DNA of 42,346 bases from assembly GCA_964632375.1 (NCBI GenBank), contig CAZWBO010000003.1:3678-46023 (forward strand). Direction: 5' to 3'. This stretch comes from an uncultured Candidatus Peribacteria bacterium. Its GTDB lineage: Bacteria; Patescibacteriota; Gracilibacteria; Peribacterales; Peribacteraceae. How positions within the stretch are numbered: position 1 is the stretch's first letter; every line of letters starts with the position of its first letter. The position numbers and the translations under genes were made by a program. Positions 13,754-42,346 of this stretch are shown here, piece by piece. The notes beneath the pieces are model-generated. The model did not search any database, was not told the origin of the DNA, and saw only the letters and a program-made list of their open reading frames with translations.

Positions 13754-14722
13754 ATGCCTTCCAAACGAACACTCTTCTCCGGTGCGGCAGTGATGGTGAG
13801 CATGCTGTTGCTGCTGATTCCTGCGTACCTGTACACCGAAACCTCGCTCACCGCCGAGTTGAGCGCGAGTACTTCGAGCGCTGCTCCCCACTGCGGCAAC
13901 GGGATCGTCGAGCCCGGTGAAGATTGCGACGATGCGAACCAGGTGGTGCAGGACGGTTGCAGTTTGTGTCGGCTGGAAGAAGGGTATATGTGCCGCGGCG
14001 CGCCGAGTGTCTGCGTGCCGGCCAACGATGCGCCGGGGTGCGGCAACGGGCAGATTGACGAGGGCGAGCAGTGCGACGATGCCAACAAGCTGGATGGCGA
14101 CGGATGCGCCGGCACCTGTCAGATCGAAGCGGGTTTCCTGTGCGAAAGCCAGCCGAGCACCTGCCGGTCCACTGGTTTCTCATCTTCCTCTTCCAGTTCC
14201 AGCAGCAGTGAATTGTCGTCCTCGATTGCGAGTGTTCCGGCATCATCCAGTACGCCGATTGCCTTGCCTTCTTCGTCTTCGAGCATCGTCGCGGCTCCGG
14301 CTGCGAGTGCCAGCAGCACGCCTGCGCCCGCAACTTCATCGAGCAGTCTCACGGGACGTACACGCACGCAGACATCGTTTTCGCGCGCCCCGATCACGAA
14401 TGATCTGACACCCACTTGCGGCAACGGATTCATCGAGAGGGGAGAAGTATGCGATGACGGCGGGACGAGCGATGGCGATGGTTGTTCGGCGACTTGCCAG
14501 GTCGAAAGGGGCTACGCGTGCCGCGACACGCCGAGTTTCTGCGAGATCAAATGCGGCGACGGCATCATCTTGGGTGGCGAGATCTGCGACGACGGGAACA
14601 CCGCCGATGCCGACGGCTGCAATGCCACGTGCCATATCGAGTTCGGTTTCCAGTGCAAGGGCGAGCCGAGCAAGTGTTTGTTGCTTTCCACGGGAGGGTC
14701 GTCGAGCAGTGTGTCCTCTTAG
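13754..14722 (+). CDS. membrane-anchored/secreted protein with four Myxococcus-type cysteine-rich repeats and a Ser-rich linker
   Basis: Four copies of CGNG..E.GE.CDD.N...GDGC...C..E.G..C (TIGR02232 / DUF4215-type), an N-terminal hydrophobic anchor, and a linker SSSSSSSSSELSSSIASVPASSSTP... Confidence 0.85.
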   Translation: MPSKRTLFSGAAVMVSMLLLLIPAYLYTETSLTAELSASTSSAAPHCGNGIVEPGEDCDDANQVVQDGCSLCRLEEGYMCRGAPSVCVPANDAPGCGNGQIDEGEQCDDANKLDGDGCAGTCQIEAGFLCESQPSTCRSTGFSSSSSSSSSSELSSSIASVPASSSTPIALPSSSSSIVAAPAASASSTPAPATSSSSLTGRTRTQTSFSRAPITNDLTPTCGNGFIERGEVCDDGGTSDGDGCSATCQVERGYACRDTPSFCEIKCGDGIILGGEICDDGNTADADGCNATCHIEFGFQCKGEPSKCLLLSTGGSSSSVSS

Positions 14723-14771
14723 GCGGGAACGTGAGCCTTGGATATTGAGTGTCGCTCCTTGAATAATTGTA

Positions 14772-14800
14772 TCAAGACTCAAGACTTCAAGATTGCAAAG
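14772..14800. repeat. tandem oligorepeat, CTTG/CAAG family (inverted orientation)
   Basis: tcaagactcaagacttcaagattgcaaag. Its reverse complement ctttgcaatcttgaagtcttgagtcttga shares ctttgcaatcttg and agtcttga with 41864-41893. Confidence 0.75.
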
Positions 14801-14937
14801 AAAACCCAACGGAAATTCACAAGTGAAACGCATACCCGAGGCATGGCCTGCAGCGTAGCGGAAGGCCATTCCGGGCAGGACTTTCATCGGCGGACACGGG
14901 TAAAGGGACGGCGTTCTCCTTCCACCCCTTCTAGCGT

Positions 14938-28125: not shown

Positions 28126-28482
28126 TCACATCACCGCCATCCGCACGTAGTACAAGCTCTTCCCTTCCTCCGTATCGAGAATGAACTTCGCATCCAGTTC
28201 CGACAGCTGCAGGATCGTCTGGCACATCTTGAGGAGCATGTGGGGCGGCAGGCCGATGCCCGCCTCGAGGCACGTGGCGCAGAGGCCGGCGGCATCCTTG
28301 GAGCGAAGGTAGCGGTCGCCCTTCTCGAGGATCACGTTGTAGAGCGATTCCTGTACCTGCAGCACGAACGTCTCGACAAACGTCTCGAGCTCTTCGAAGG
28401 GCACGTCGTTCATCTGCGGCAGAACCTCCATGATGTCGAGGTCGGTGTGGATCGCGTGCGCGATGCAGGCATCGATAGTCAT
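28126..28482 (-). CDS. hypothetical protein (118 aa, lower GC)
   Basis: Clean ORF MTIDACIAHAIHTDLDIMEVLPQMNDVPFEELETF... No family recognised. Confidence 0.5.
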   Translation of the reverse strand: MTIDACIAHAIHTDLDIMEVLPQMNDVPFEELETFVETFVLQVQESLYNVILEKGDRYLRSKDAAGLCATCLEAGIGLPPHMLLKMCQTILQLSELDAKFILDTEEGKSLYYVRMAVM

Positions 28483-28685: not shown

Positions 28686-30680
28686 ATGCCCGCATCTGCC
28701 CCGGATTTGCCGTCCCTCCCGTCACGATCTCCACTGCTGTTCGTTATCGGCGGGTTTGTCGTGCTCCTGCTGGGCATCTACGGGGCGTCACTCTCGAATG
28801 GGTTCGTGCGCTGGGATGACGGGCTGCTCATCTACGAGAACCCGGCGATCCGGCATATCTCGCCCTCGACGCTCAAGACAATCTTCACCAGCTACGATCC
28901 GGAGCTCTACATCCCGCTCACGTTCTTCAGCTACCAGATCGATTTTTTGTTCGGCGGCATGCATGCCTTCGTGTATCACCTGCAGAACCTGCTGTGGCAC
29001 GGTCTCAATACGCTCCTCGTTACCTGGCTCGCGTTCCTGCTCACGCGTCGGGGGTGGGCCGCGCTGACGGTGGGGTTGCTCTTCGCCGTCCATCCGCTGC
29101 AGGTGGAGGCAGTGGCGTGGGCGGCCGCGCGGAAAGACGTGCTATCGACATTCTTCTTCCTGTCCTCGATCATTGGGTATCTCTACGCGCGTGCGCGGGT
29201 ATCGCGGCGGCTGTACTGGTTCAGTGTCGGCCTGTTTCTGCTCGGCTTGCTCGCGAAAGTGTCGGTGATCACGCTGCCGCTGGTGCTTCTGTTGATCGAC
29301 GATCTGCAGGGGCGCACGAAGGATCGCAAGATGCTGACGGACAAATTGCCGTACTTCGTTCTGGCCGTCGTCTTCGGCATCGTGGCGGTGGTGGGGAAGC
29401 AGGGGGTGTTTGCGGCGGTGTCGCCGTGGCAGATGCTCCTGCTCGCCTGCCGCAGCACGGTCTTTTACCTGCAGGCGCTCGCGTGGCCCGCGTACTATGA
29501 CGTGCTCTATCCGTTCGACCGATCCATCGCAATCGCGGTGCCCGAGATACTGCTCTCGGTGCTGATCGTCCTCGGCATGATCGCTCTGGCGCTTGTGCTG
29601 TACCGACGGCAACGGTGGGTGTTCTTCGGCGTGTGCTTCTACCTGCTCACGCTCGCGCCGACGATGACGAACCTCATCAAAGCGAACCACACGTACCTCG
29701 GCTCCGATCGCTACGCGTACATACCGTCCATCGCCGTGTTCCTGCTGGTGGCGTACGGGCTGGCGCGCTGGGTGGAGACGCGCAGCCGCCAGTCGGCGCG
29801 CGAGCGCCTGGGGCTCATCGCCACCGCCTCGCTCGGCGTATTGGTGGTGGGGTTGGCAGTACGCAGCCACGTGCAGGCGGCGGTGTGGCGCAACAGCGAG
29901 GCGCTGTTCCTCAACGTACTGGCGCGGTACCCGGATTCCGACATCGCGCATAACAATCTCGGCAACGTGTACCGCCGCCAGGGGCGGTTGGACGACGCCA
30001 TGAAGCACCTGCAGGCCGCTCTCGCATCGGCGCCGGCCGACGCGAAGAACAACATCGCGAACGTGTTGCGTGCGCAGGGCGATCTCCCTGCCGCCGAGAA
30101 GAGCCTGCAGGAGGCGCTGGCCGCCAAGCCGAACGCGAAGATCTACGTGAACTTGGGGGCGGTGTATCGCAAACAGGGAAAGATGCTCGATGCACTGGCG
30201 CAGTACGAGAAGGCGCTGGCACTGGACCAGCAGAGCGCGGAAGCGCAGTTCGGCCTCGGCATCGTGTACGCCGAGATGGGCGAGACGCAGAAGGCATTGG
30301 ATGCCTACGCGGAAGCCATCAAGCTGCAGCCGCTCTACGCCGATGTGTACGTCAACCGCGGCGCGCTGCACGTCGCATCGAGCGAGTTCGACGAGGCACT
30401 CGCCGATTTCCAACAGGCCATCGAGATCGCGCCGGATTTTTCACAGGCGCACTACAATCTCGCCGTCCTCTACGAGAAGCTGGATCAGCCGGAACAAGCG
30501 AAGAAAGAGTACGAGGCGACGCTGCGCGTGCAGGACGACTACACGCCGGCGCACATCAACCTGGGCCTGCTCCTGCATGCGTCGGGCGACACGGACGGTG
30601 CGCGACGGCAGTTCCAGGCCATCCTTCGGTACGACCCGCAGAACCGCGCGGCACTCTCGGCCATCGAACAGTTGCGCTGA
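28686..30680 (+). CDS. GT-C-fold membrane glycosyltransferase-like protein with C-terminal TPR array (TMTC/PMT_2/DUF1736-like)
   Basis: From ATG 28686. FVRWDDGLLIYENPAIRHISP...YDPELYIPLTFFSYQIDF...YHLQNLLWHGLNTLLV...LFAVHPLQVEAVAWAAARKDVL, then many transmembrane segments and at least 6 TPRs (NNLGNVYRRQGRLDDAMKHLQAAL...). It is a paralogue of 40155-41741. Confidence 0.8.
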   Translation: MPASAPDLPSLPSRSPLLFVIGGFVVLLLGIYGASLSNGFVRWDDGLLIYENPAIRHISPSTLKTIFTSYDPELYIPLTFFSYQIDFLFGGMHAFVYHLQNLLWHGLNTLLVTWLAFLLTRRGWAALTVGLLFAVHPLQVEAVAWAAARKDVLSTFFFLSSIIGYLYARARVSRRLYWFSVGLFLLGLLAKVSVITLPLVLLLIDDLQGRTKDRKMLTDKLPYFVLAVVFGIVAVVGKQGVFAAVSPWQMLLLACRSTVFYLQALAWPAYYDVLYPFDRSIAIAVPEILLSVLIVLGMIALALVLYRRQRWVFFGVCFYLLTLAPTMTNLIKANHTYLGSDRYAYIPSIAVFLLVAYGLARWVETRSRQSARERLGLIATASLGVLVVGLAVRSHVQAAVWRNSEALFLNVLARYPDSDIAHNNLGNVYRRQGRLDDAMKHLQAALASAPADAKNNIANVLRAQGDLPAAEKSLQEALAAKPNAKIYVNLGAVYRKQGKMLDALAQYEKALALDQQSAEAQFGLGIVYAEMGETQKALDAYAEAIKLQPLYADVYVNRGALHVASSEFDEALADFQQAIEIAPDFSQAHYNLAVLYEKLDQPEQAKKEYEATLRVQDDYTPAHINLGLLLHASGDTDGARRQFQAILRYDPQNRAALSAIEQLR

Positions 30681-30716
30681 TTTGTCCTGGCCAGCGAGTG
30701 CGGTACACTGCCGTGT

Positions 30717-31259
30717 ATGGGACGGCAATACAGGCAGATCCTCATCGCCACGCTTGTACTGAGCGTCTTCGTGGCGGCGTGTACCAAACAGGAGACTCCT
30801 CCGACGGCAACCACGCTGCCCGCCACCACCGGCCTGCAGACGCACGAAGGGAAAGGCGGCGGATTCGCCGTCGATCTTCCCGGCGATTGGGTGGCATTTA
30901 CCGCAAAAGATCGTGCCCCCATCGCGATCACCGCGGTCGGTGACGTGTTGGAGTACGGGAAGGGCAGTGACACACTCATGACGGCCGAGGTTCTCTCGTC
31001 GGCAACCGCCGCGCGACAGCCCGATGAGACATGGCTGCAGTTCTACGTGCGCGTCCTGCTCTCGCCGCGCACATTCAATTGGGGGAAAGTGACGATGGGC
31101 GCGAACGCCTACGACCACCTCACGCTCACGCAGCCCGGGGACGGGCTCATGCCGCATCAGTATCTGATGACGCTCAGCCCGGATAGTGCGCTCGTTCTGG
31201 GGTTCAACGACACCGGCGAGACGACGCGGATGGTGCTCGGGAGTGTGAGGAAGAAATAA
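30717..31259 (+). CDS. lipoprotein (PsbP/DUF1795-like?)
   Basis: Lipobox LSVFVAAC, followed by a Thr/Pro-rich linker and [11 protein letters not shown]. Confidence 0.65.
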
Positions 31260-31375
31260 GAGGGACAGCAAGGATGAAGCACGAAATTCAAAAAACTCGT
31301 ACGTCAAATGTCGGATGTCGTGCTTCGCAATCGTCCTTTCTCCCCTTTTTGCCTTCCCCATGCTATGCTCCCGCC

Positions 31376-31906
31376 ATGTCCACCCCCTCCCCCCTCGTCG
31401 GCATCATCATGGGTTCCACGTCCGATTGGGAGACGATGCAGCACGCGGCGGAAATGCTTGAGCAACTGGGTGTGCCGTACGAGAAGAAAGTGGTATCCGC
31501 GCACCGCACGCCGGATCTCCTCTACGCGTACGCGAAGGCGGCCGAGGAGCGCGGGTTGCAGGTGATCATCGCGGGGGCCGGCGGCTCGGCGCACCTGCCG
31601 GGGATGACGGCGAGCATGACGGTGCTGCCCGTGTTGGGGGTACCGGTGGAGACGAAGACGCTCAAGGGCATCGATTCGCTCCTCTCCATCGTGCAGATGC
31701 CGGGTGGGATTCCCGTGGGGACGCTCGCCATCGGCAAGGCCGGCGCGACCAATGCGGCGCTGCTGGCGGCGGAGATTCTCGGCGCCGCACATCCGCACAT
31801 CCGCGAAGCGGTACGCGCGTTCCGTGCCGAGCAGACGAAGACGGTGATGGAGCAGGGCGATCCGTCACAAGCGAAAACCAAGAAGCGTTCCGCGAAGCGT
31901 TCATGA
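31376..31906 (+). CDS. purE: N5-carboxyaminoimidazole ribonucleotide mutase (class I PurE)
   Basis: From ATG 31376: [21 protein letters not shown]...SAHRTPD...[14 protein letters not shown]. Confidence 0.9.
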
Positions 31907-32985
31907 TCATCGGCATCGTCGGCGGCGGCCAGTTGGCGCAGATGCTGGGGTTGGCCGGCAAGCCGATGGGACATTCCTTCCGTATCCTCGATCCATCCCT
32001 CGTCGCTCCCGCTCGCACGGTCGGCACGCTGGTAGAAGGCGCCTACGACGATCGCGACGCGCTGATGCAACTGGCGGAAGGCTGCGACGTGGTCACGTTC
32101 GATTTCGAGAACGTACCGGCGAGCTCCGTGCAATTCCTCTCGACAAAAGTTCCGGTATTCCCGGGCGCGGATATTCTGGCCATTGCGCAGGATCGTTTCG
32201 AAGAAAAGACCACGTTCGAGTCGCTCGGCATTCCCACGCCCGCATTCGCGCTCGTCGATTCGCTCGATGATGTGCAATTTGCGCTCCAGGATCTGCATGT
32301 TCCCGCCGTGCTGAAGACACGGCGGCAAGGGTACGACGGCAAGGGGCAAGCGGTTCTCCGCTCCGCGGAAGATATTGTGTCGGCGTGGGAGAAAATCGGC
32401 GATGTGCCGCTATTGGTGGAGAAGTTCATTCCATTCGATCGCGAAGTGTCGCTCCTCTCCGTGCGCGGCCGCACGGGGGAGATCGCCTTCTATCCGCTCA
32501 TCGAGAACGTGCACCGGGAGGGGATTCTCCGCGTGTCGCGTGCACCGGCGCACGCGACGGATGTACTGCAGCACACGGCGCAGCAGTACGCCCGATCCAT
32601 CCTTGAAAAATTCTCGTACGTCGGTGTGCTCGCTATTGAATTTTGCCAGGTGGGTGATCAACTCATGGCCATCGAGATGGCGCCGCGCGTGCACAACTCC
32701 GGCCACCTCACCATCGAGGCGGCGGCCACGAGCCAGTTCGAGAACCACCTGCGCGCCATCAGCGGCATGCCGCTCGGGCCTACCGAGATTGCCAAGCCGT
32801 CGGCCATGGTGAATTTGATCGGCACGATTCCGTCGGAAAAATCACTCGCCGCGATTCCCGGTGCCTCTGTGCATGTGTACGGCAAGGAGCCGAGGCCCGG
32901 GCGAAAATTGGGCCATGTGACCGTGGTGAGGGAGACGTGGGAGGAGGTGGAGGAGAGTATCAAACACAGTGAGTCTCTTCTGTAG
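31903..32985 (+). CDS. purK: N5-carboxyaminoimidazole ribonucleotide synthase
   Basis: ATGA overlap with pur[16 protein letters not shown]... has an ATP-grasp layout and [11 protein letters not shown]. Confidence 0.9.
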
Positions 32986-33062
32986 GCATCTGGAGAGCGG
33001 GCTTTCTGCCCCCGGTGCACAGCGATAGCACAGTTCCCTCAGTTCCATGTATTGCTTGAGAG

Positions 33063-33125
33063 AACTAACAACTATCAACGAACAACAAGAAACCAATAAA
33101 CCAGTACACCAATCAACCAATCACC
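33063..33125. repeat. 7-8-nt periodic AAC-rich oligorepeat ending in the ATTGGTTG family (inverted orientation), at the uppP 3' end
   Basis: aactaac aactatc aacgaac aacaaga aaccaat aaaccag tacaccaatc aaccaatc acc. The reverse complement contains attggttgattggtg. Confidence 0.7.
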
Positions 33126-33883
33126 ACCCACGCCACCACAGCCGCCACTACCCGGTACAAGCCGAACGGCGTGAACGTGTGGGTCTGAATGAAGCGCACC
33201 AGCCAGCGGATCGCGACGAGCGCGACGAGGAAGGAGACGAGGACGCCGACGGCGAGTTCTTGGTATTCCGGCATGGTGAACGTGTGGGCGCTCTTGAACA
33301 AATCGAGGGCCGTGGCGGCGAGCATGGTGGGGATGGCGAGCAGGAACGAGAACTCCACGATGGCGCGTCGTCGCAGGCCGAGCAGCAGGCCGCCGATGAT
33401 GGTGGCCGCGGAGCGGGAGACGCCGGGAACGATGGCGATGGATTGCGCGAGGCCGATCAGCGCCGCTTGCGCGTACGTGAGCTTGCTCAGATCGTCGAGT
33501 GCGTCATCTTCCTCTTGATGCAGGCGCTCGAACAGGAGGATGACGAGACCGCCGATCAGCATGCTCCACAGAACAACGGTCGTGTTATCCAGAAGGTATC
33601 GCTTCACGAAGCCATGCAATGCGAGGCCGATGACGGCCGTGGGTAAAAAGCCGATGCACACACGCAGCAGCACCGCACGGTTCACCAGTAGCTGCCGGCC
33701 GTAGAGCACGATGACGGCGAGGATGGCGCCGGACTGAATGGCGATCTCGAAACTCTTCTGGAACTCCGTGTCCGGCAAGCGCAGCAGATGCGATGCGAGG
33801 ATCAGGTGGCCGGTCGACGAGATCGGGAGGAATTCGGTAATGCCTTCGACGATGCCGAGGAGAGCCGCGTGCAGGAGTGTCAT
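33113..33883 (-). CDS. uppP: undecaprenyl-diphosphate phosphatase
   Basis: From the internal ATG (complement of 33881-33883): MTLLHAALLGIVEGITEFLPISSTGHLIL...PGVSRSAATIIGG. Confidence 0.9.
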   Translation of the reverse strand: MTLLHAALLGIVEGITEFLPISSTGHLILASHLLRLPDTEFQKSFEIAIQSGAILAVIVLYGRQLLVNRAVLLRVCIGFLPTAVIGLALHGFVKRYLLDNTTVVLWSMLIGGLVILLFERLHQEEDDALDDLSKLTYAQAALIGLAQSIAIVPGVSRSAATIIGGLLLGLRRRAIVEFSFLLAIPTMLAATALDLFKSAHTFTMPEYQELAVGVLVSFLVALVAIRWLVRFIQTHTFTPFGLYRVVAAVVAWVVIG

Positions 33884-34028
33884 GAGGAGAGGATGAAGAT
33901 GATGCGGCAAGCCTACTCGCCAGGCAGTCGGAGCAACAGTCGCGCGTCTGGCAGCACAGCGCATCGTCCACAATTGTCTTTCGCAGAATCCTCACTACAA
34001 TGGGAGGAAATCGCCCCTCTCGCTTTCC

Positions 34029-37000
34029 ATGATGCTCCGATTGCCGCGCCGGTTCCTCAGACGACGTACGCTCTCGGTGCTCGCGTGCACGGGCATCCTC
34101 CTCCTTTCGGCGTGCGCGTCGTCGCGTCGCGCGGCGCTGCCGCTCCCGCCGATTCGCGAGATATTCGGCAGCATGCAGACGACGAGTCTGTTTCTCGCAC
34201 AGGTGGGCGGCGGAAATGAATCGCAGGATCTCGGTGTCCTCAATGGCAATGCGCTCGTGCGCATCAACACGCACACGCTCTTCACGGCTACCGACGGCAC
34301 GGGAGTATCCAGCAGCGTTGCCGATACGGTGCTTTCGACCGTCACCGGTGCCAGCGTGCTCGTGTACGAGTACACCGGCCAGGAGCAAGAACTCCTGCGA
34401 CAGGGGAAAACCGGTGCCGATGCGTTCACGGGGAAGTGGTACCTCTCGCCCGCGCTCCTGGCGCAGCGGCCGCAGCTGAACGGTCTGCCGGTACTGACGG
34501 CCTTCAACGCCGGCAAGACCTACGACGTGCGATCCGATATCCCGCTCGTGCTCACGGCGATCTACAGCGCTTCGGCCTCGCCCGCGTTCCGTGCGCAAAT
34601 CGCGCCCATCTACCGCTGCGGGAACGGCCGTACCGAGCCGCAGCAGTTCATCAGCGAGCTGGGATTAAGCCACCTGACGGAAGGGTGCGACGACGGCAAC
34701 GATGTCGACACCGATACCTGCAGCAACCAGTGCCAGGTGCGCACGCCCGATGTCGGCGCATCGTGCGGCAACGGCGTGAAGGAAGGAACGGAACAGTGCG
34801 ATCACCGCAACGACCGCAGCCGCGGATGCACGGCCGAATGCCGTGCGACGGTCGGGTACATGTGTCAGGCAGACAACACGTGCGTGCGGTTGATCCCCGA
34901 TTTTGGTGGATCATCCAAGTCCTGGGTTATTGTACTTACTTACGAGAAAAATCCCCTATCGGATGATGCAGTGAGAACGATCTGTCAACACATAGCCCCC
35001 TCTGTTTCTGGGTTCTTCGAGAAACAGGCAAGTTTTTATGGCAAAAAAAAGCCATTTGATTCCGTTACCTGTATTCAGCAGCAACTGTTGCTTCCTCAAG
35101 AACTGATCGACGATAAAATTCCTTTCACTTGTGAAGGCCAGACTTTCCCATCATTGAACAGTCAAAAGGTCAGTGCATACCTCGAGAAGAACATCCCTGC
35201 TTTGCAACAGGCAGCGGTTGTCACTGTAGTGGATTTCATGGCTGAGCCTCGTCAGTTTTGTCATTTTGCAGCAGACCAAAAGCATCACTTCATCTTTATT
35301 GGACCAATTGAAGAGAATGCCTACTATCCTCCGATTGACCTCGACTCCATCGGTGAAACCATGGCTCACGAGTTGATGCACAACATCGGTGCGAGTGACA
35401 AATATGCTGCGATCGATCGAACAGCTCGGACATGCTGTGCCATTGATCCAATCACACGCGAGTCGGTTGAGGGTTCAGATATCATGTGCCACCTCGTGTA
35501 TACAAGCGAAATGGACGGAGCATGCATGAGTGTGCCCTTTGCCGATTTGAATGTCGGACCATGGTCTGCGCAGGAGATCGGTTGGTTAATACGAGAAAAG
35601 AAGGCCGACGTCGCGCGCCTCGTGGTGAACCAGCTGCCGCTGCCGAGCGATGCGCCGCTTGTGCGCGGGAAGGACGATCAGATCGTCTTCCGCTTCCAGA
35701 TGGCTTCGCCAGAGACGCTCTCGGTGGGCACGCTCTTCTTCCAGCAGGAAGCCGAGACGAAGCCCGAGATCGTCGATGTCTGGCCCATTCAGTCGCTGAA
35801 GCTAGAGTGCGGAACCACGGCATTCCAGCCGCTGCAAGTACAGTTCCGCAGCGACTGGGCCACGCTGAGCATCAGCGAATTCCGCCTGCCAGATAACTCG
35901 CCGTACTTCCTGCCGGCGAACACGCCTGTTACGTGCAATGTACGCGCGAAAATCAAAGACTACACCCAGACGAAGACCTTCAAGTTCCGCTTCGCGCACA
36001 AAGAGTACGGCTTGGATCGGAACTATGTCGCTGCCAATAATCCGACGGGCACCATACTCGAGAACATCCGTACCAACGGCGTGTGTGCCTCTGCGAGTTG
36101 CGATATCGCCGTTACGCTGCTTGAGCCGCCCGCGCTGCGCATCGCCGACTCGGCTGCGTCTTCCGCTGCGTCGTCCATCGGACCGAGCTCATCGGCCGCA
36201 CCCATCTCGGGCCCGTGGTCCACAAACGGCAACGTGTGGGCGATGAAGCAATTGGGCAACACGCTCTTCCTCGGCGGCAGCTTCACGGAAGTGGGCGGGC
36301 AGCCGCGCTACGGATTGGCGGCAGTGGACGCGACGACGGGCGAAGTGCTCCCGTGGAACCCCAATGCGAACTACGCGGGCGTAGCAGGCGAAGCCATCGT
36401 GCAGGCGATGGCATTGGAGGGGAACACGTTGTACGTCGGCGGCAGTTTCTCGTACGTCGGGCCGACGGTGCGCAACCGCATCGCCGCCATCGATGCGACG
36501 AGCGGCGTCGTGCTACCGTGGGGGGCCGCGCTCAATGCCAAAGTCGACAACACACCCTCCATCATCAGCTCGCTCGCTCTCGTGGGCGACACGCTGTACG
36601 GCGGCGGCAACAACTACCGCTGCGGGCTCGCGGCGTGGAATAAGACGACCGGCGAACTCGTTACCGCGTGGCACCCCTGCGTGAACCACTACGTCACGGC
36701 TTTGGCGCCCGTACCAGGCGGCAACTTGCTCGTGGCGGGGATGTTCGACATGGTCACCAACTCCGCAGGCACATCGCAGGCGCGGACCAATGTGGCGATC
36801 GTCAACGGCAGCACCGGTGAATTCCTCCCGTGGGCGCCCAAAGTGAATGGCACGGTGTACGCGGCGTTCGTCAACGGGACGAACGTGTTTTTGGGCGGGA
36901 ACTTCGCGCAGGTGGAGGGCAAACCGCGCCAAAACTTCGCCGTCCTCAACGCGACGAGCGGCGCGCTGTCCGACATCAAGGCCGATGCGAACGCGCCGGT

Positions 37001-37262
37001 GTGGGTCTTCCTGCTCGATGGGTTCAAGTTGTACGTCGGTGGCGGGTTCTCCTTCATCGGCGGCCAGGCGACCGACACGGGCCTCGCGGTGATGGATCCG
37101 TACGTCGGTGGTGTGCTCCCCTGGAACCGGCTCACGACGCAATCGCTCCCGCGGCAGCCGAAAGCGCTCGCGAGCGACGGGCAGTACCTCTACGCCGGCG
37201 GCGGGCTCATCGACATCTTCGGCCGGCCGTTCCTCAATCCCCTTGGGAAAGTTCGCAAATAA
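34029..37262 (+). CDS. giant lipoprotein: shared N-domain + Cys-rich repeats + metzincin-like HExxHxxGxxD domain + Ser-rich linker + beta-propeller (delta-60/DUF5122-like) repeats
   Basis: Lipobox ILLLSAC. YRCGNG...CDDGNDVDTDTCSNQC and CGNGVKEGTEQCD. MAHELMHNIGASD. Repeated GGSF..VGG..R..LAA.DA.TG..LPW blocks. Confidence 0.85.
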   Translation: MMLRLPRRFLRRRTLSVLACTGILLLSACASSRRAALPLPPIREIFGSMQTTSLFLAQVGGGNESQDLGVLNGNALVRINTHTLFTATDGTGVSSSVADTVLSTVTGASVLVYEYTGQEQELLRQGKTGADAFTGKWYLSPALLAQRPQLNGLPVLTAFNAGKTYDVRSDIPLVLTAIYSASASPAFRAQIAPIYRCGNGRTEPQQFISELGLSHLTEGCDDGNDVDTDTCSNQCQVRTPDVGASCGNGVKEGTEQCDHRNDRSRGCTAECRATVGYMCQADNTCVRLIPDFGGSSKSWVIVLTYEKNPLSDDAVRTICQHIAPSVSGFFEKQASFYGKKKPFDSVTCIQQQLLLPQELIDDKIPFTCEGQTFPSLNSQKVSAYLEKNIPALQQAAVVTVVDFMAEPRQFCHFAADQKHHFIFIGPIEENAYYPPIDLDSIGETMAHELMHNIGASDKYAAIDRTARTCCAIDPITRESVEGSDIMCHLVYTSEMDGACMSVPFADLNVGPWSAQEIGWLIREKKADVARLVVNQLPLPSDAPLVRGKDDQIVFRFQMASPETLSVGTLFFQQEAETKPEIVDVWPIQSLKLECGTTAFQPLQVQFRSDWATLSISEFRLPDNSPYFLPANTPVTCNVRAKIKDYTQTKTFKFRFAHKEYGLDRNYVAANNPTGTILENIRTNGVCASASCDIAVTLLEPPALRIADSAASSAASSIGPSSSAAPISGPWSTNGNVWAMKQLGNTLFLGGSFTEVGGQPRYGLAAVDATTGEVLPWNPNANYAGVAGEAIVQAMALEGNTLYVGGSFSYVGPTVRNRIAAIDATSGVVLPWGAALNAKVDNTPSIISSLALVGDTLYGGGNNYRCGLAAWNKTTGELVTAWHPCVNHYVTALAPVPGGNLLVAGMFDMVTNSAGTSQARTNVAIVNGSTGEFLPWAPKVNGTVYAAFVNGTNVFLGGNFAQVEGKPRQNFAVLNATSGALSDIKADANAPVWVFLLDGFKLYVGGGFSFIGGQATDTGLAVMDPYVGGVLPWNRLTTQSLPRQPKALASDGQYLYAGGGLIDIFGRPFLNPLGKVRK

Positions 37263-37265
37263 TCC

Positions 37266-40151
37266 ATGAAGTTCCGCCGCGCACCGCCGGCTCTGTATCT
37301 CATCACCGTTCCGGTGATGCTCGCGCTCCTCTACGCCCGGCCGCTCCCGCTGCGCGGACTTTTGCGAGGGCGGGCAATGGACGGCGTGTACGCGCAGCTG
37401 ACACGGGCGGTGCAGCCCGGCAACTCTCTTGCCGGGCAACTCGCGGATCCGGGCGGCAACGAGATCGGCACGGTGACGGCGCCGGTTCTCTTGCAAGCGA
37501 ACGTCCATAATTTCTTCCAGACGCCGGCATACGAAGGTGCGGCCGATCTGCGGAGCGATCACCTCGTGGGTCCGGCACTCCCGCAGAGCCGCGCACAGAC
37601 GTGGGCGTACGAGTTCGTGGGCGACGAGGCGGATCGCCTCAAGCAGGGGATGACGGGCAGCGATGCGTTCCACGGCGCGTTCTACTTCTCGCCGGCCTTC
37701 ATTATCGCGCACCCGGGGCTCCGATCGTCTCTCGATCGCTTCACCATGGGGAAGCGGTACTACTGGTTCACCCGTCAGCCGCTCGTGCTCTCGCTGGGCG
37801 TGGATCAATCCGCTGCGCGGCCGCTGATCGGCGAGGCGGAAATTCTGTACCGCTGCGGCGACGGAGTGCTCGAGCGCACGCCGCAGTCGTTCCCCGCGCT
37901 CGGCATCCAGTCGCTCCCGGAAGAGTGCGACGGCGTGGCCGGTTGCAATCCCGCGTCGCCCTGCGACGAAGGCACCTGCGATCCCGCTGCCGCATGCCGA
38001 CCTCTTACCGGGTACGGCTGTGATGAAAACAATACCTGTACGACCGGCGCCTCTTCCGTGTCATCAGCAGTTACATCTTCTTACGCGGGCATCTCATCGC
38101 CACCTTCTTCCACTCTTCCCGGCACGTGTGTCACCAATAGCGAGTGCCTGTCTGGCCGATGTCTGGATGGCTGGTGCCAGCCTCCGTCGTCGGCAGTATC
38201 CTCCTCCTCCGTCACATTCGGCGACGGCGATCTCGCAATCCGTTCGGTGGATGTGCCGGCCCGCCAGTATCAGCCGGGCACCCTGGGCGAGCCTATCCTC
38301 AAGGTGCAGATGACGGCGGTGAACGAGGACGTGAATGTACAGGAACTGCGCTTCACACCGGTCGAGAGCTACGGCAATTCCGTGGAGTACCTCAGCGTGT
38401 TCCGCGATGGGATGGACCAGCCGGTGGGCCGCGCCGCGCGCGCGTACTGCGCCGCGCGTCCGGTGGACGCCAAAGACTACTTCAAGCTGCCGTTCTGCGT
38501 TCACTTCGCCGTCCCACTGTCGGTACTGCAAGGGCGCATTGTCACGCTCACCGTGCGCCCGCAGTTGCGTCAGCGAAATCAAGGCTTCCAACGCGGCGAA
38601 CGTTTACAATTCAGTTTGACGGACGAGCAGCCGACGTTCGAGGTGCGCGGCGGATCACTCGATGCGGTGGAGGCAGTTGGCGTCCAATCGCAGGCTCCGC
38701 TCAGCTTATACACGAACGCCGCGTCGGGCCGTATCATGATGGGTACCATCGAGCATGCGGGAGGATACATTCAGGGGCCCGAAGGGACGGCCGTGTTCGC
38801 GAAGATCGTCTCGATCTCCGGCGCGGTGGAGCCGATGCCCAGCTGGACGTACGCGAGTACCGCCATCGGGCTGCGGCCGATCGCACGGTTCACCATTCGG
38901 CCCGATAACCCTGTCACGCTCCGCAACGTGCTCTTCACCGTGCACGCCAACAATATGCGACTCTCGCCGAGCGCCTTCAAGATCGTCGACGATCGCTTCA
39001 TTTCCAACGGCACCATTCCGACCGGCGCCAGCCGCCAGCCGGTGGAGTTCCCGTGTCAGGCGCAGACGATGGCGGGAGATCCGGTGCGCGAGAGCGAGAT
39101 TTCCGGCGTCTTCCTCGTCTCGTGCCGCGTGGGTATGAACTTCTTCGCCGATCCGAGCGTCGTGGGCGATCTTAAGCTTCTCGGCGACATACTCGACGAG
39201 CGAACGGTGCAGGGCGCGCCGTCGTCCATCGATGTTCTCTGGAAGAACCTCTCCGAGAACCTGCCGCTCGGCGCTTTCGGCAGCCATATATCGTGGAACA
39301 CGACGGACGATGCCTGGCCCATGATGTGGATCGATCAGCCGGTGATCGCCATTCGATCCATACTGGTCGAGAACCCCGTGCGCACTGCCGGCGGCGGTTC
39401 CGCCGACGACACAGCCGTGTGCGCCGACGTGCAGCCGCCGATGGGCATCATCTATCCGGGCGGTGGCGGCACTGCCGGCGTCACGTTCCGCAACGCCGGC
39501 AACCGCACGTGGAAGACAAGCGACGGTTACCGTCTGTCGCAGATCACGCCGCCGGGGTCGAACCTGCCCATGCAGTCGAACCCGCTGCCGCTGCCGAACG
39601 ACGTGCCGCCGGGGCAGAACGCGCGTTTCATAGTGAGCTTCACCGCGCCGAATATCCAAGGCCAGCAGACGTATCAGATCGTGACGCAGATGACGCGCAA
39701 CGGCGTCGCCGTGCCGAGCGACACGTGCCGCGTGCCCATTACCGTCGGCGTGCCCATTCCCGATCCGACGAATGACATGGCCATGTGCGCCGGTGTCACG
39801 TTCAAGTACAAGAGCACGCTCGGCGTGTGGATCACATCCGATTCCATTCCGTCCAATTCTCTCAATTTTGTGATCATGTCGGTGAACATGAAGAACGCGG
39901 GCGATACCACTTGGAAGCCGGAGGGCGGGTACAGTTTGGGCGTGACGGGCGTCGATCCGTCGCCGAGTATGACCGCCATCACGGCCCCGGTGGCGCCGAA
40001 CACCAATAAGATCTTCGAGGGACAAGTATTGGTGCCGACGCAGGTCGGCCCGCACCCGGTGACGGTGCGGATGCGCCGCAGCCCCACTATGCAGAATCCG
40101 AATGGATCCTTCGGCGATACGTGTTCGAAGACGCTCACCATCACCAAGTGA
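37266..40151 (+). CDS. giant secreted protein: shared N-domain + degenerate Cys-rich module + Ser-rich linkers + two C-terminal NBR1-like Ig-type domains
   Basis: N-terminal hydrophobic anchor. AYEFVGDEADRLKQGMTGSDAFHGAFYFSPAFI parallels VYEYTGQEQELLRQGKTGADAFTGKWYLSPALL of the upstream gene. The C-terminus carries FRNAGNRTWKTSDGYRLS...PGQNARFIVSFTAP and MKNAGDTTWKPEGGYSLG... Confidence 0.85.
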   Translation: MKFRRAPPALYLITVPVMLALLYARPLPLRGLLRGRAMDGVYAQLTRAVQPGNSLAGQLADPGGNEIGTVTAPVLLQANVHNFFQTPAYEGAADLRSDHLVGPALPQSRAQTWAYEFVGDEADRLKQGMTGSDAFHGAFYFSPAFIIAHPGLRSSLDRFTMGKRYYWFTRQPLVLSLGVDQSAARPLIGEAEILYRCGDGVLERTPQSFPALGIQSLPEECDGVAGCNPASPCDEGTCDPAAACRPLTGYGCDENNTCTTGASSVSSAVTSSYAGISSPPSSTLPGTCVTNSECLSGRCLDGWCQPPSSAVSSSSVTFGDGDLAIRSVDVPARQYQPGTLGEPILKVQMTAVNEDVNVQELRFTPVESYGNSVEYLSVFRDGMDQPVGRAARAYCAARPVDAKDYFKLPFCVHFAVPLSVLQGRIVTLTVRPQLRQRNQGFQRGERLQFSLTDEQPTFEVRGGSLDAVEAVGVQSQAPLSLYTNAASGRIMMGTIEHAGGYIQGPEGTAVFAKIVSISGAVEPMPSWTYASTAIGLRPIARFTIRPDNPVTLRNVLFTVHANNMRLSPSAFKIVDDRFISNGTIPTGASRQPVEFPCQAQTMAGDPVRESEISGVFLVSCRVGMNFFADPSVVGDLKLLGDILDERTVQGAPSSIDVLWKNLSENLPLGAFGSHISWNTTDDAWPMMWIDQPVIAIRSILVENPVRTAGGGSADDTAVCADVQPPMGIIYPGGGGTAGVTFRNAGNRTWKTSDGYRLSQITPPGSNLPMQSNPLPLPNDVPPGQNARFIVSFTAPNIQGQQTYQIVTQMTRNGVAVPSDTCRVPITVGVPIPDPTNDMAMCAGVTFKYKSTLGVWITSDSIPSNSLNFVIMSVNMKNAGDTTWKPEGGYSLGVTGVDPSPSMTAITAPVAPNTNKIFEGQVLVPTQVGPHPVTVRMRRSPTMQNPNGSFGDTCSKTLTITK

Positions 40152-40154
40152 ACG

Positions 40155-41741
40155 TCAGTGCCGCTCGGGCGGGTTGATCGCTTGCACTCGTTCGAGTGCA
40201 TCGCGGATATCGGGGTTATGCGGATCGTCGATGAGCGCCGCGCGTATCTCGCGCAGTGCATCGTCGTGTTTCCCCTGTGCCGCGTAGGCGAGCCCCAAGT
40301 TCACGCGGGCGGGGCCGAAGCGGGGGTCGATGGCGAGCGTCTGACGGTACAGCGCAATTTCCGCGTCCGTCCGTCCCATTTGCCCTTCGGCCGCTCCCCA
40401 GTTGCTCAGAATCTGCACCATCAGATTCGGCGCGGCATCGAGGGTGGCGGCGCGGCGGTACTCCTCGATGGCCGCGGGCCACTCCCGTCTGCGCGCGAAG
40501 TAGATGCCCTTGCAGAACGGCGCGAGCGACGATCGCGGGTACAGCGACTCCACGTACGTGAAGTAGGTAAGCGTGTTCTGCCACAGGAGCGTCTGCCGGT
40601 ACGTCAGCACGCTGCAGAGTGCGACGAGCGACAGCACCGCGGCCGCGCCTATTTTCTTTTCTCGGATGGGCCAGCCTTTCGCGATGTGCGCCACTGCCGC
40701 CGCGATGGCGATGAAGATGCCGATGGACGGGAAGTACCCGTAGTGGTCCGTGCCGGCCGAGATCCCGCCGCCCTCCGCGAACTGCGGGAGCGTGGGCGCA
40801 ATGGCGAGCAGATAGAAGAGGATGCCGCAGAAGACCGTGCGGTCCCACCGGCGGCTGCGCCAGACGAGCGGGATCGATACGAGGATGAGAAGCAAAGGAA
40901 CGCCGTACGCGAGGGAATTGATCGTGAACGGTCCGTACAGCGGGTACTGCATGCTCAGGTGGTGCGGCACGAGGATCTTCCACGGGTACAGCAACAGTGA
41001 GCGCGGGATGACCAGGAGGAACATGAGCGGGCTTGTCTTGGCGAGCGTGTCCGTCTTTCCGCCCACGGCGATGAGCGCGAAGAGGATGCCGACGGCGAAG
41101 AAGGGAATTTTGTCGCGCCAGAAACTTTTCCGGAGAATCACGCGCTCTTCGTACCAGTCGAACAGCAGCAAGAGTGCGGGGAGCGGGAGGATTGTCACTT
41201 TACTGAGGAGGCCGCACGCGAAGAGAATCAGGCTCCAGAGGAACGCCGAGCGCGACCGCGTCTCGCGGGCGCGGAGGTACATGAGCATGCTGCCGAGCGC
41301 GAACATCGTCGAGAGCACGTCCTTGCGCGTGGCGATCCACGCGACGGTATCCACTTGTATCGGGTGCAGCGCGAAGAAGAGCCCGATGGCCAACGCCAGC
41401 CAGCGCCTGCGAAATAATCTCTCGCACAGAAACAGCACGAGTACGGCGTTCACGGCGTGGAGGAGAACGTTCGTCAGGTGGAAGATCATCGGATCGTTCC
41501 CGCCCAGCGCGTAGTTCAGTTGGTAGCTGAAGAGCGTGAACGGAATGTACAGCTCCGGATCGTACGAGGTGAAGATGGCTCTGAGCGTGTGCGGCGAGAT
41601 CGCGCGGATGAGCGGATTGTTGAACACGAGCAGTGGATCATCGATTTCGATGAAACCCGCATGGAGAACGGGGATATACAGCGCCATCACCAGCGCGAAG
41701 AGAATGACGGCGAAGGTCGTAGTATGTCGGGAGAGAGCCAT
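40155..41741 (-). CDS. GT-C-fold membrane glycosyltransferase-like protein with C-terminal TPRs (TMTC/PMT_2/DUF1736-like), paralogue 2
   Basis: From the internal ATG (complement of 41739-41741): MALSRHTTTFAVILFALV...FIEIDDPLLVFNNPLIRAISP...YDPELYIPFTLFSYQLNY...FHLTNVLLHAVNAVLV...FFALHPIQVDTVAWIATRKDVL. The 31 upstream track codons are encoded by the oligorepeat. Confidence 0.8.
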   Translation of the reverse strand: MALSRHTTTFAVILFALVMALYIPVLHAGFIEIDDPLLVFNNPLIRAISPHTLRAIFTSYDPELYIPFTLFSYQLNYALGGNDPMIFHLTNVLLHAVNAVLVLFLCERLFRRRWLALAIGLFFALHPIQVDTVAWIATRKDVLSTMFALGSMLMYLRARETRSRSAFLWSLILFACGLLSKVTILPLPALLLLFDWYEERVILRKSFWRDKIPFFAVGILFALIAVGGKTDTLAKTSPLMFLLVIPRSLLLYPWKILVPHHLSMQYPLYGPFTINSLAYGVPLLLILVSIPLVWRSRRWDRTVFCGILFYLLAIAPTLPQFAEGGGISAGTDHYGYFPSIGIFIAIAAAVAHIAKGWPIREKKIGAAAVLSLVALCSVLTYRQTLLWQNTLTYFTYVESLYPRSSLAPFCKGIYFARRREWPAAIEEYRRAATLDAAPNLMVQILSNWGAAEGQMGRTDAEIALYRQTLAIDPRFGPARVNLGLAYAAQGKHDDALREIRAALIDDPHNPDIRDALERVQAINPPERH

Positions 41742-41778
41742 GGGGGTAGTGTAGAGTGAGATGCGGTGAAGGAGGGAA

Positions 41779-41900
41779 GACTGCAAGAATGCAAGAATGC
41801 AAGATTGCAATAAGATTGCAATAAGCCAAAACAAAACCCAAGAGTTCTACCCTTTCGGATTTACTTTGCAATCTTGCATTCTTGCAGTCTTGAAATCTTC
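41779..41900. repeat. 8-nt tandem oligorepeats in inverted orientation forming a long hairpin (CTTG/CAAG family)
   Basis: Left arm gactgcaagaatgcaagaatgcaagattgcaataagattgcaataag (41779-41825). Right arm ctttgcaatcttgcattcttgcagtcttgaaatcttc (41864-41900). tgcaatcttgcattcttgcagtc is the reverse complement of gactgcaagaatgcaagattgca. Confidence 0.85.
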
Positions 41901-42346
41901 TAAATTATTGGTTCCTCAAACGTCTCCTCCGCCGGCACTTCTTCTTTCTTAGGCGGTGCCGACGCGGCTTCGTCCCATTTCTTCAAATTTTCCTCCACCT
42001 GCGCCTTGGGCGTGCAGTACTTCGCGCGCGACTGGGCGATGATCTGCGGGGTGTAGTCGTGCTCGATTGCGGGTGCGTCGAGCGTGCGACCCGAGAACGC
42101 CTCACGCTGCTCGCCGTTCACCTGCATCTTGATGTAGAACTCGCGCACACCGAGGTTGATGATGTCGCGCTCTTTGAAGATAGGATTGTACTCACCTTCC
42201 AGAATCCTCGCGTCCTCGGCGCCCACGCGGAAGCTGATCATCGATCCCACGTTGCCGAACACCGTCTCGCGCACCACGTCCGAAAGCTGGCCCATGTACT
42301 GGTGCGCGATGGTCAGGTTCAGACGGTATTTGCGCGCTTCCGAGAG
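41900..42346 (-). CDS. C-terminal part of a VirD4/TraD/TraG-like type IV secretion coupling protein (5' end outside the window)
   Basis: The frame is open to the window edge: ...SEARKYRLNLTIAHQYMGQLSDVVRETVFGNVGSMISFRVGAEDARILEGEY... This matches the conserved C-terminal core of coupling-protein / DNA-binding-domain ATPases. Confidence 0.7.
   Translation of the reverse strand, partial: LSEARKYRLNLTIAHQYMGQLSDVVRETVFGNVGSMISFRVGAEDARILEGEYNPIFKERDIINLGVREFYIKMQVNGEQREAFSGRTLDAPAIEHDYTPQIIAQSRAKYCTPKAQVEENLKKWDEAASAPPKKEEVPAEETFEEPII

Follow-up and report, generated by a model that had tools for sequence, protein, structure and literature searches.

TMTC1-4 are protein O-mannosyltransferases of the GT-C type that modify cadherins and are assigned to family GT105 of the CAZy database. 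The PMT/POMT enzymes (family GT39, including actinobacterial Pmt) carry out the polyprenyl-phosphate-mannose-dependent O-mannosylation of serine/threonine (Ser/Thr)-rich exported proteins and lipoproteins. ArnT with the PMT_2 family and the YfhO/GtlB-type enzymes use sugar donors bound to undecaprenyl phosphate (C55-P) at the outer face of the membrane. In TMEM260, the tetratricopeptide repeat (TPR) domain is reported to be sufficient for recruitment of the acceptor peptide (bioRxiv 10.64898/2026.03.17.711096). Bacterial proteins joining a TMTC-like GT-C domain to TPRs are common in databases under generic names, and we found no substrate assigned to them in the literature. Here we analyze two such genes, GTC-A (28686..30680, plus strand) and GTC-B (40155..41741, minus strand), in a stretch of 42,346 nucleotides from an uncultured Candidatus Peribacteria bacterium (contig CAZWBO010000003.1, positions 3,678 to 46,023), hereafter called the window. 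An initial annotation of the window had placed both products in the PMT/TMTC-like GT-C family. It had also read the region from 28.7 to 41.7 kb as a possible self-contained module in which the GT-C enzymes O-glycosylate the Ser/Thr-rich linkers of two giant proteins, giant1 and giant2, and UppP recycles the lipid carrier. The family assignment proved correct and now has stronger support from homology to TMTC, a PMT_2 match of GTC-B and a model with GT-C fold.

GTC-A and GTC-B are 37% identical over 518 amino acids (aa; BLASTP, E 2e-87) and are thus paralogues, as previously claimed. The motifs listed as common to them, FVRWDD/FIEIDD, YDPELYIP, HL.N.L.H and HP.QV..VAW.A.RKDVL, are present in both. 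GTC-A comprises about 11 transmembrane (TM) helices followed by about eight TPR-like helix pairs; the TPR region of GTC-B is short, with about three repeats. Of the C-terminal TPRs ascribed to both proteins, profiles recovered many significant matches in GTC-A but few and weaker ones in GTC-B. For TMTC1-4, N-terminal sequences were rebuilt from an alignment published in the supplement to Eisenhaber et al. 2021 (PMC7801869). Using hhalign, a profile of the Peribacteria family aligned with TMTC1-4 over 365 columns with a probability of 99.8% and an E-value of 2.4e-30. GTC-B alone aligned with TMTC over 364 columns (probability 99.4%, E 1.9e-21), and the family profile also matched the single sequence of human TMTC3 (E 2e-16), to which GTC-A is 29% identical (BLASTP, E 8e-16). 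The hhalign comparison with a single ArnT sequence was not significant (E 0.35). Given the strong match to TMTC and an E-value of only 0.35 for ArnT, we thus regard the proteins as specifically TMTC-like. Judged by these alignments, both membrane domains are homologous over their full length to the N-terminal domain of eukaryotic TMTC1-4.

Domain databases captured this relationship in part. GTC-B passes the Pfam family PMT_2 (PF13231) with E 2e-9 and 38.3 bits against a gathering cut-off of 26.1, while the membrane domain of GTC-A alone gave no Pfam match, PMT_2 included, and no match to sequences of the PDB. The Pfam families PMT (PF02366), MIR and PMT_4TMC were matched by neither GT-C protein of the window. 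When membrane domains of 30 family members were searched against Pfam, three matched PMT_2 and one matched PMT at E 1e-5; DUF1736 was found in none of them at E-values up to 0.1. Of the models named in the initial annotation, PMT_2 thus holds for GTC-B and not for GTC-A, DUF1736 for none of the members searched, and TPR for both proteins. In phmmer and profile searches against PDB sequences, neither the GT-C membrane domain nor either giant found a match.

The AlphaFold models of GTC-A are confident, with pLDDT values of 90 (full-length protein) and 92 (membrane domain alone). A Foldseek search with the full-length model returned solely TPR proteins (OGT, SPY, APC/C). With the model restricted to the membrane domain, the GT-C fold was recognized, with matches to STT3/AglB/PglB, ArnT, Pmt4, ALG3, EmbB and DPY19 and further ones to Pmt1/2, AftD and PimE (E 2e-4 to about 4e-2, probabilities 0.95-1.0, query-normalized TM-scores of about 0.4-0.55). 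The structural comparison thus bears out the proposed fold, with Pmt4 among the matches. The helix pattern of the models corresponds to 11 TM helices, and the loop at residues 365-368 is Arg-rich and predicted to lie inside. Because of the helix count in the models and the Arg/Lys-rich inner loops, the TPR domain is predicted to face outward, on the same side as the loop carrying the Asp-Asp pair.

The family was compared with TMTC at the seven motifs numbered M1 to M7. M1 is kept: all 33 sequences compared have D44 and D45, with IDD in GTC-B, so that the acidic loop motif emphasized at the outset survives alignment. M3, RxD in the second outward loop (EL2), is also kept, with R149, K150 and D151 invariant or nearly so, and the family sequence HPL(H/Q)(T/V)EAV preceding it aligns with HPIHTEAV of TMTC. 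M7, ERxxY before TM10, is represented by D341-R342-x-x-Y345 in GTC-A and the family. M4, KE(T/Q)xxT, is partly kept: K191 is invariant and T196 present, while Val occupies the Glu position (KVSVIT). Two motifs are not kept. The SHKSYRP of M2 in the first outward loop (EL1) is aligned with YDPELYIP, in which Tyr and Pro are retained and the invariant D71, P72 and E73 occupy the His-Lys position. At M5, the DW of the TM7-TM8 loop, the aligned position reads L-Y.

By homology, an enzyme of this kind would take a single sugar from a polyprenyl-monophosphate-sugar donor at the outer face of the membrane and pass it to Ser or Thr of exported proteins brought by its TPR domain. The catalytic Asp-Asp pair would lie in the first outward loop of the 11-helix membrane domain and the outward TPR domain would follow the last helix; separate paralogues would serve separate clients. 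We consider it on balance probable that GTC-A and GTC-B perform such a polyprenyl-phosphate-sugar-dependent O-glycosylation of TPR-selected exported proteins, the protein acceptor being proposed because of the analogy with TMTC and TMEM260. Several observations weigh against this assignment. Of the predicted metal ligands of TMTC, neither Glu in M4 nor Asp in DW is present, and an acidic DPE stands at the SHK of M2. Since these ligands are gone and SHK has become DPE, the active site, as aligned, is partly rewired relative to TMTC, and its chemistry may differ. In GTC-B, M7 reads DHYGY against DRYAY, an exchange of Arg for His. The fold search does not tell GT-C enzymes acting on proteins apart from those acting on lipids or glycans, as ArnT and Emb score like oligosaccharyltransferase.

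The closest homologues of GTC-A all come from Candidatus Peribacteria/Peregrinibacteria of the candidate phyla radiation (CPR). With a length of about 630 aa, they carry the name "tetratricopeptide repeat protein" or "protein O-mannosyl-transferase", the latter given by JGI. Scanning genomes of species representatives yielded at least 517 confirmed stretches, of which the best 80 loci were examined with up to 10 kb of flank per side (less at contig ends), every protein of the block being compared with them by tblastn. All 80 stem from metagenome-assembled genomes (MAGs) of Peregrinibacteria-lineage CPR, one of them labelled Patescibacteria only. Several MAGs hold two to three copies among these best 80, and some loci have two copies within 10 kb; the GT-C/TPR family is therefore multi-copy and is expanded in Candidatus Peribacteria. 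About eight "dolichol-phosphate mannosyltransferase" genes have been described for Peribacter genomes (PMC4736985).

A GT-C/TPR paralogue adjoins a gene pair for an alpha-2-macroglobulin of about 2000 aa and the peptidoglycan synthase PBP1C in 11 of the 80 loci (L005:10001-21925, L012, L015, L016, L017, L022, L023, L037, L038 and, in reversed order, L055 and L064). This association comprises two gene orders and GT-C genes of two clades and is more recurrent than that with the giants. In another locus, L085, the GTC-A orthologue is followed by genes for endonuclease V, UppP (minus strand) and a 236-aa family 2 glycosyltransferase (GT2; 14151-14861), which could be a candidate polyprenyl-phosphate-sugar synthase. 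It is possible, though we put it forward tentatively, that Peribacteria run a multi-paralogue TMTC-type O-glycosylation with a rewired active site in which each TPR domain chooses its own clients; these may include giant, strain-variable adhesin-like proteins, lipoproteins with Thr/Pro linkers, pilins and the alpha-2-macroglobulin/PBP1C pair. If this holds true, the eukaryotic TMTC pathway would gain its first functional counterpart in bacteria, which may also be its ancestor.

The same data can be read differently, with the GT-C/TPR proteins modifying a non-protein acceptor, be it a lipid, a polysaccharide of the surface or a polymer that is linked to peptidoglycan or resembles teichoic acid, and the TPR domain binding the polymer or a partner protein, comparable to ArnT, Emb/Aft and YfhO/GtlB-type enzymes. 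ArnT, EmbB, AftD and PimE are indeed among the structural matches, and GTC-B passes PMT_2, a Pfam family that also contains ArnT-like enzymes; the homology, however, is specific to the protein-acting TMTC (E 2e-30) and not to ArnT (E 0.35). A cell-envelope context is provided by the paralogue group beside PBP1C in 11 loci and by uppP, which in L002 and L033 adjoins the orthologue of GTC-A, and a heavy investment of Peribacter in surface sugar polymers has been described (PMC4736985). Nevertheless, TPR-GT-C fusions characterized to date are solely protein O-mannosyltransferases (TMTC, TMEM260). We know of no TPR-bearing GT-C enzyme that acts on lipids or glycans, and we judge a non-protein acceptor to be rather unlikely.

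The genes and features in and around the block are the following.

28126..28482, minus strand: 118-aa soluble protein with Cys motifs, divergent from GTC-A; no Pfam match
28686..30680, plus strand: GTC-A, TMTC-like GT-C glycosyltransferase, 664 aa (TPR matches, hhalign and BLASTP to TMTC, AlphaFold)
30717..31259, plus strand: small lipoprotein, 180 aa, with lipobox VAAC and Thr/Pro-rich linker
31274..31906, plus strand: purE (AIR carboxylase; Pfam AIRC, E 3.3e-64)
31903..32985, plus strand: purK (Pfam ATP-grasp, E 1.8e-59, and PurK_C)
33113..33973, minus strand: uppP/bacA, undecaprenyl-diphosphate phosphatase (Pfam BacA, E 2.5e-73)
34029..37262, plus strand: giant1, lipoprotein, 1077 aa (sequence and domain matches)
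37266..40151, plus strand: giant2, membrane-anchored or secreted, 961 aa (sequence and domain matches)
40155..41741, minus strand: GTC-B, divergent TMTC-like GT-C paralogue, 528 aa (PMT_2, hhalign to TMTC)
41776..41900, no strand: intergenic inverted repeat of TGCAAGAA units upstream of GTC-B (arm complementarity)
41903..42346, minus strand: virD4-like gene for a type IV secretion system (T4SS) coupling protein, C-terminal end, exiting the window (93% identity to the L087 gene)

In coordinates and gene content the initial annotation was accurate: the open reading frames (ORFs) lie where it placed them, and a lipoprotein, purE, purK, uppP and proteins of 1077 and 961 aa are found between the GT-C genes. 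That the latter bracket this set is true of position but not of a shared operon. GTC-A, the lipoprotein gene and purEK are all on the plus strand, uppP is on the minus strand, the giants are again on the plus strand and GTC-B on the minus strand, with no common transcription unit. The product of uppP scores 265 bits against NCBIfam NF001390 (cut-off 260), and the gene is convergent with purK and divergent from giant1. GTC-B and giant2 are convergent with 3 bp between their stop codons. The lipoprotein gene follows GTC-A after 37 bp in the same orientation; its product has no Pfam or NCBIfam match, and the Thr/Pro-rich linker begins right after the lipobox Cys. purE, purK and uppP are housekeeping genes, and purE is unrelated to glycosylation. 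Promoter and terminator scans performed no better than on shuffled sequence.

We regard it as improbable that this block works as a self-contained glycosylation module. Both enzymes are TMTC-like and the giants are exported, with short Ser/Ala/Thr linkers, in giant1 at a position conserved in its orthologue; however, the giants are not Ser/Thr-rich, and the sites modified by characterized TMTC and TMEM260 enzymes are in Ig-like domains (cadherin EC, IPT) rather than in Ser/Thr-rich linkers. uppP, giant1 and giant2 recur together only in two related MAGs of a narrow lineage and in an independent assembly of one of them, and the same two MAGs retain GTC-A, the lipoprotein gene and purEK. Against this stands the finding that none of the 80 GT-C loci has a giant homologue within 10 kb, the sole match being a Cys-repeat in L075. 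The pairing of GT-C genes with giants and uppP is thus not conserved. In L087/L088, the single relative in which assembly extends past the downstream side of the giant pair, giant2 is followed by the virD4-like gene and GTC-B is missing, and distant proteins with the N-terminal domain of the giants have neither a GT-C gene nor uppP as a neighbor. The genes of the block lie on different strands in separate transcription units and are interrupted by purEK, and a GT2 donor synthase and a flippase were not found in it; for GT2, Pfam scans of window ORFs, covering some but not every ORF, and tblastn with the L085 GT2 were negative.

UppP dephosphorylates undecaprenyl pyrophosphate (C55-PP) arising from peptidoglycan synthesis or en bloc transfer. 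Transfer of the PMT/TMTC type from a monophosphate donor does not produce C55-PP; it releases C55-P, and UppP is not required. The presence of uppP is therefore no evidence of a link, and the role of carrier recycler for the GT-C enzymes assigned to it is not supported. Most likely, the flanking arrangement brings together a core GT-C gene, housekeeping genes, the giants and an extra GT-C gene by lineage-specific juxtaposition, and the gene order would have come from lineage-specific rearrangement. What speaks against mere juxtaposition is that GTC-A, uppP and the giants co-occur in a narrow lineage, L003 and L083 belonging to one MAG and L001 and L087 to another; a local functional link of these genes within that lineage is conceivable. 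Since the claim of an enzyme-substrate module fails, the practical value of the block is that of a shortlist of experimental candidates and not of a discovered system.

GTC-A itself has a conserved genomic setting. A GT-C gene directly follows rpoA-rplQ-rplM-rpsI in 18 of the 80 loci and in L002, with a small divergent conserved gene between the ribosomal genes and the GT-C gene. In a neighbor-joining tree, GTC-A clusters with these rpoA-linked loci and is their positional orthologue. The linked position and the clustering thus identify GTC-A as a conserved core gene with ribosomal neighbors, fixed beside the rpoA/ribosomal-protein cluster across the class. The protein encoded at 28126-28482 is 70-88% identical in five relatives and has the same position in all. 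This soluble, acidic 118-aa protein, with GLCATC and other conserved Cys, is more conserved, also across distant Peribacteria, than its divergent GT-C partner. A possible identity as a GtrA-like flippase was rejected, the product being soluble, acidic and marked by Cys motifs. On the other side, the lipoprotein gene and purEK follow GTC-A solely in L003 and L001/L004, the loci most closely related to the window, and there the contigs stop at purK; the lipoprotein is kept as a neighbor with 74% identity in L003 and 40% in L001. Among the 80 loci plus L002, L033 and L002 alone have uppP near a GT-C gene.

The two giants share an N-terminal region of about 230 aa (31% identity, E 3e-22). In giant1 it is accompanied by Cys-rich repeats, a short Ser/Ala-rich linker and a C-terminal propeller-like region, and in giant2 by a Cys-rich region with two short Ser/Thr-rich linkers and weak Ig-like (NBR1-type) matches. 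The Ser/Ala/Thr-rich strings quoted in the initial annotation are present in the giants, but the label of Ser-rich proteins does not fit: Ser plus Thr amounts to 14.2% in giant1 and 15.4% in giant2, like purE with 15.2%. Enrichment is confined to linkers of 13-25 residues, and the richest 20-aa window holds 9 and 11 Ser/Thr in the giants versus 15 in a DUF4215-repeat protein encoded elsewhere in the window.

A word-indexed homologue search gave a single orthologue of giant1 (87%, sister MAG) and none of giant2, and missed true orthologues. When a profile of about 160 residues from the start of the common N-terminal region was run with full HMMER against 1.84 billion representatives, only 25 proteins matched at E-values up to 1e-3, most of them large and nearly all with the match near the N-terminus. 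This domain (window 34161-34628 and 37398-37880; P0131-P0154) defines a very small family. The two best matches are an orthologous pair, found both in MAG GCA_041691135.1 and in a Logan assembly made independently. Orthologues of giant1 occur in two related MAGs only (P0122, 87%; P0131, about 53%), and the giant2 orthologue, P0132, came from the full HMMER search. The order in L087/L088 is DNA-alkylation-repair gene (minus), uppP (minus), giant1 (plus), giant2 (plus) and virD4-like gene (minus). The distant domain members P0133 and P0134 are Kelch-propeller giants with neither GT-C gene nor uppP nearby. Residues 294-527 of giant1 (window 34908-35609) form a 234-aa insert with HELMHNIGASD, a metzincin-like HExxHxxGxxD motif. 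The insert is missing from both orthologues and has no Pfam or PDB match; Pfam searches with sub-segments of the giants, including this insert, gave solely weak propeller and Ig-like matches. The giants are a fast-evolving, modular and genus-restricted pair of surface proteins, in agreement with the many large, Cys-rich and strain-variable extracellular proteins described for Peribacter (PMC4736985).

As to the clients of the GT-C enzymes, the giants, the lipoprotein with its Thr/Pro linker, a pilin and the poly-Ser DUF4215 protein are possible candidates, none of which is favored. The lipoprotein is a candidate substrate at least equal to the giants, as are the pilin and the DUF4215 protein, both encoded elsewhere in the window. 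That giant1 and giant2 are the specific clients of GTC-A or GTC-B appears very unlikely. The DUF4215-repeat protein (13754-14722, plus strand) is Cys-rich with a long poly-Ser/Ala/Thr linker; it contains 24.5% Ser plus Thr, with 15 Ser/Thr per 20 residues, and is far richer in Ser than either giant.

GTC-B differs from GTC-A in its history. It is placed on a long basal branch of the neighbor-joining tree and has no orthologue among the 80 loci; a metagenome scan for orthologues found only one relative, with 29% identity. It is not present at the orthologous position in L087/L088, where there is a gap of 82 bp. GTC-B is thus a deep-branching, lineage-specific extra copy beside the virD4-like gene, although contig breaks in the sister MAG hide whether it is present there. 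One could ask if GTC-B is a decaying or non-catalytic by-product of family turnover without a role of its own. The change from DRYAY to DHYGY replaces Arg with His in the donor-phosphate motif, but His can still contact phosphate. The TPR region has only about three repeats, the branch is long, an orthologue was not found and the gene is missing in L087; yet the ORF of 528 codons is intact, DD, YDPELYIP, HPxQV, RKD and Lys are all kept, and the protein reaches 99.4% probability against TMTC over 364 columns. We consider such decay quite improbable.

The virD4-like fragment next to GTC-B corresponds, at 93% identity, to residues 598-745 of the L087 gene, and homologues of this gene match Pfam T4SS-DNA_transf. 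The virD4-like genes of L028 (11894-14170), L067 (6713-8953) and the window each adjoin a GT-C/TPR gene, which in the window is GTC-B; that of L087 (7017-9254) adjoins giant2 instead. Tandem TGCAAGAA units make up the inverted repeat, which is located between the stop codon of the virD4-like gene and the start codon of GTC-B; its arms (41776-41810 and 41866-41900) have 35 nt each, are 91% complementary and enclose a 55-nt loop. The unit is strongly over-represented there, with 6 matches observed against 0.08 expected. A common upstream DNA motif for both GT-C genes was considered and rejected, the match at GTC-A being solitary and with two mismatches.

The Peribacteria proteins are bacterial TMTC homologues, members of a kind already known but uncharacterized. 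Homology to TMTC over the full length offers a concrete starting point for work on the glycosylation of surface proteins in episymbiotic CPR bacteria and on how the TMTC pathway of eukaryotes arose. With ArnT/PMT_2 and the YfhO/GtlB-type enzymes the proteins share the GT-C fold; ArnT is a structural match, and GTC-B passes PMT_2. These enzymes, however, are TPR-less and act on lipid A or teichoic acid, the hhalign comparison with ArnT was not significant, and the partner GT2 and flippase genes of the three-component YfhO/GtlB systems were not found in the window ORFs scanned. The PMT/POMT enzymes are linked to the family by structural matches to Pmt4 and Pmt1/2 and by one family member matching Pfam PMT (E 1e-5), although the window proteins are without MIR, PMT_4TMC and PF02366 and have TPRs where MIR would stand. 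TMEM260 likewise consists of a GT-C core followed by a non-cytoplasmic TPR domain. This likeness concerns the architecture, and TMEM260 has a Rossmann-like domain that the Peribacteria proteins do not have; its TPR-mediated recruitment may nevertheless serve as a model for client choice by the Peribacteria TPR domain. Compared with TMTC1-4, the Peribacteria family has no DUF1736 match, M4 Glu or M5 DW, carries YDPELYIP for SHKSYRP, would use a bacterial lipid carrier and occurs in several divergent copies per genome, with two to three in some MAGs. Its membrane domain is nonetheless homologous to theirs over the full length (E 2.4e-30) and shares with it the 11-TM plan, the long EL1 loop, the hydrophobic non-membrane helix between TM7 and TM8, the C-terminal TPRs, predicted to be non-cytoplasmic, and the motifs DD, HP(I/L)HTEAV, RxD, the Lys of M4 and (E/D)RxxY.

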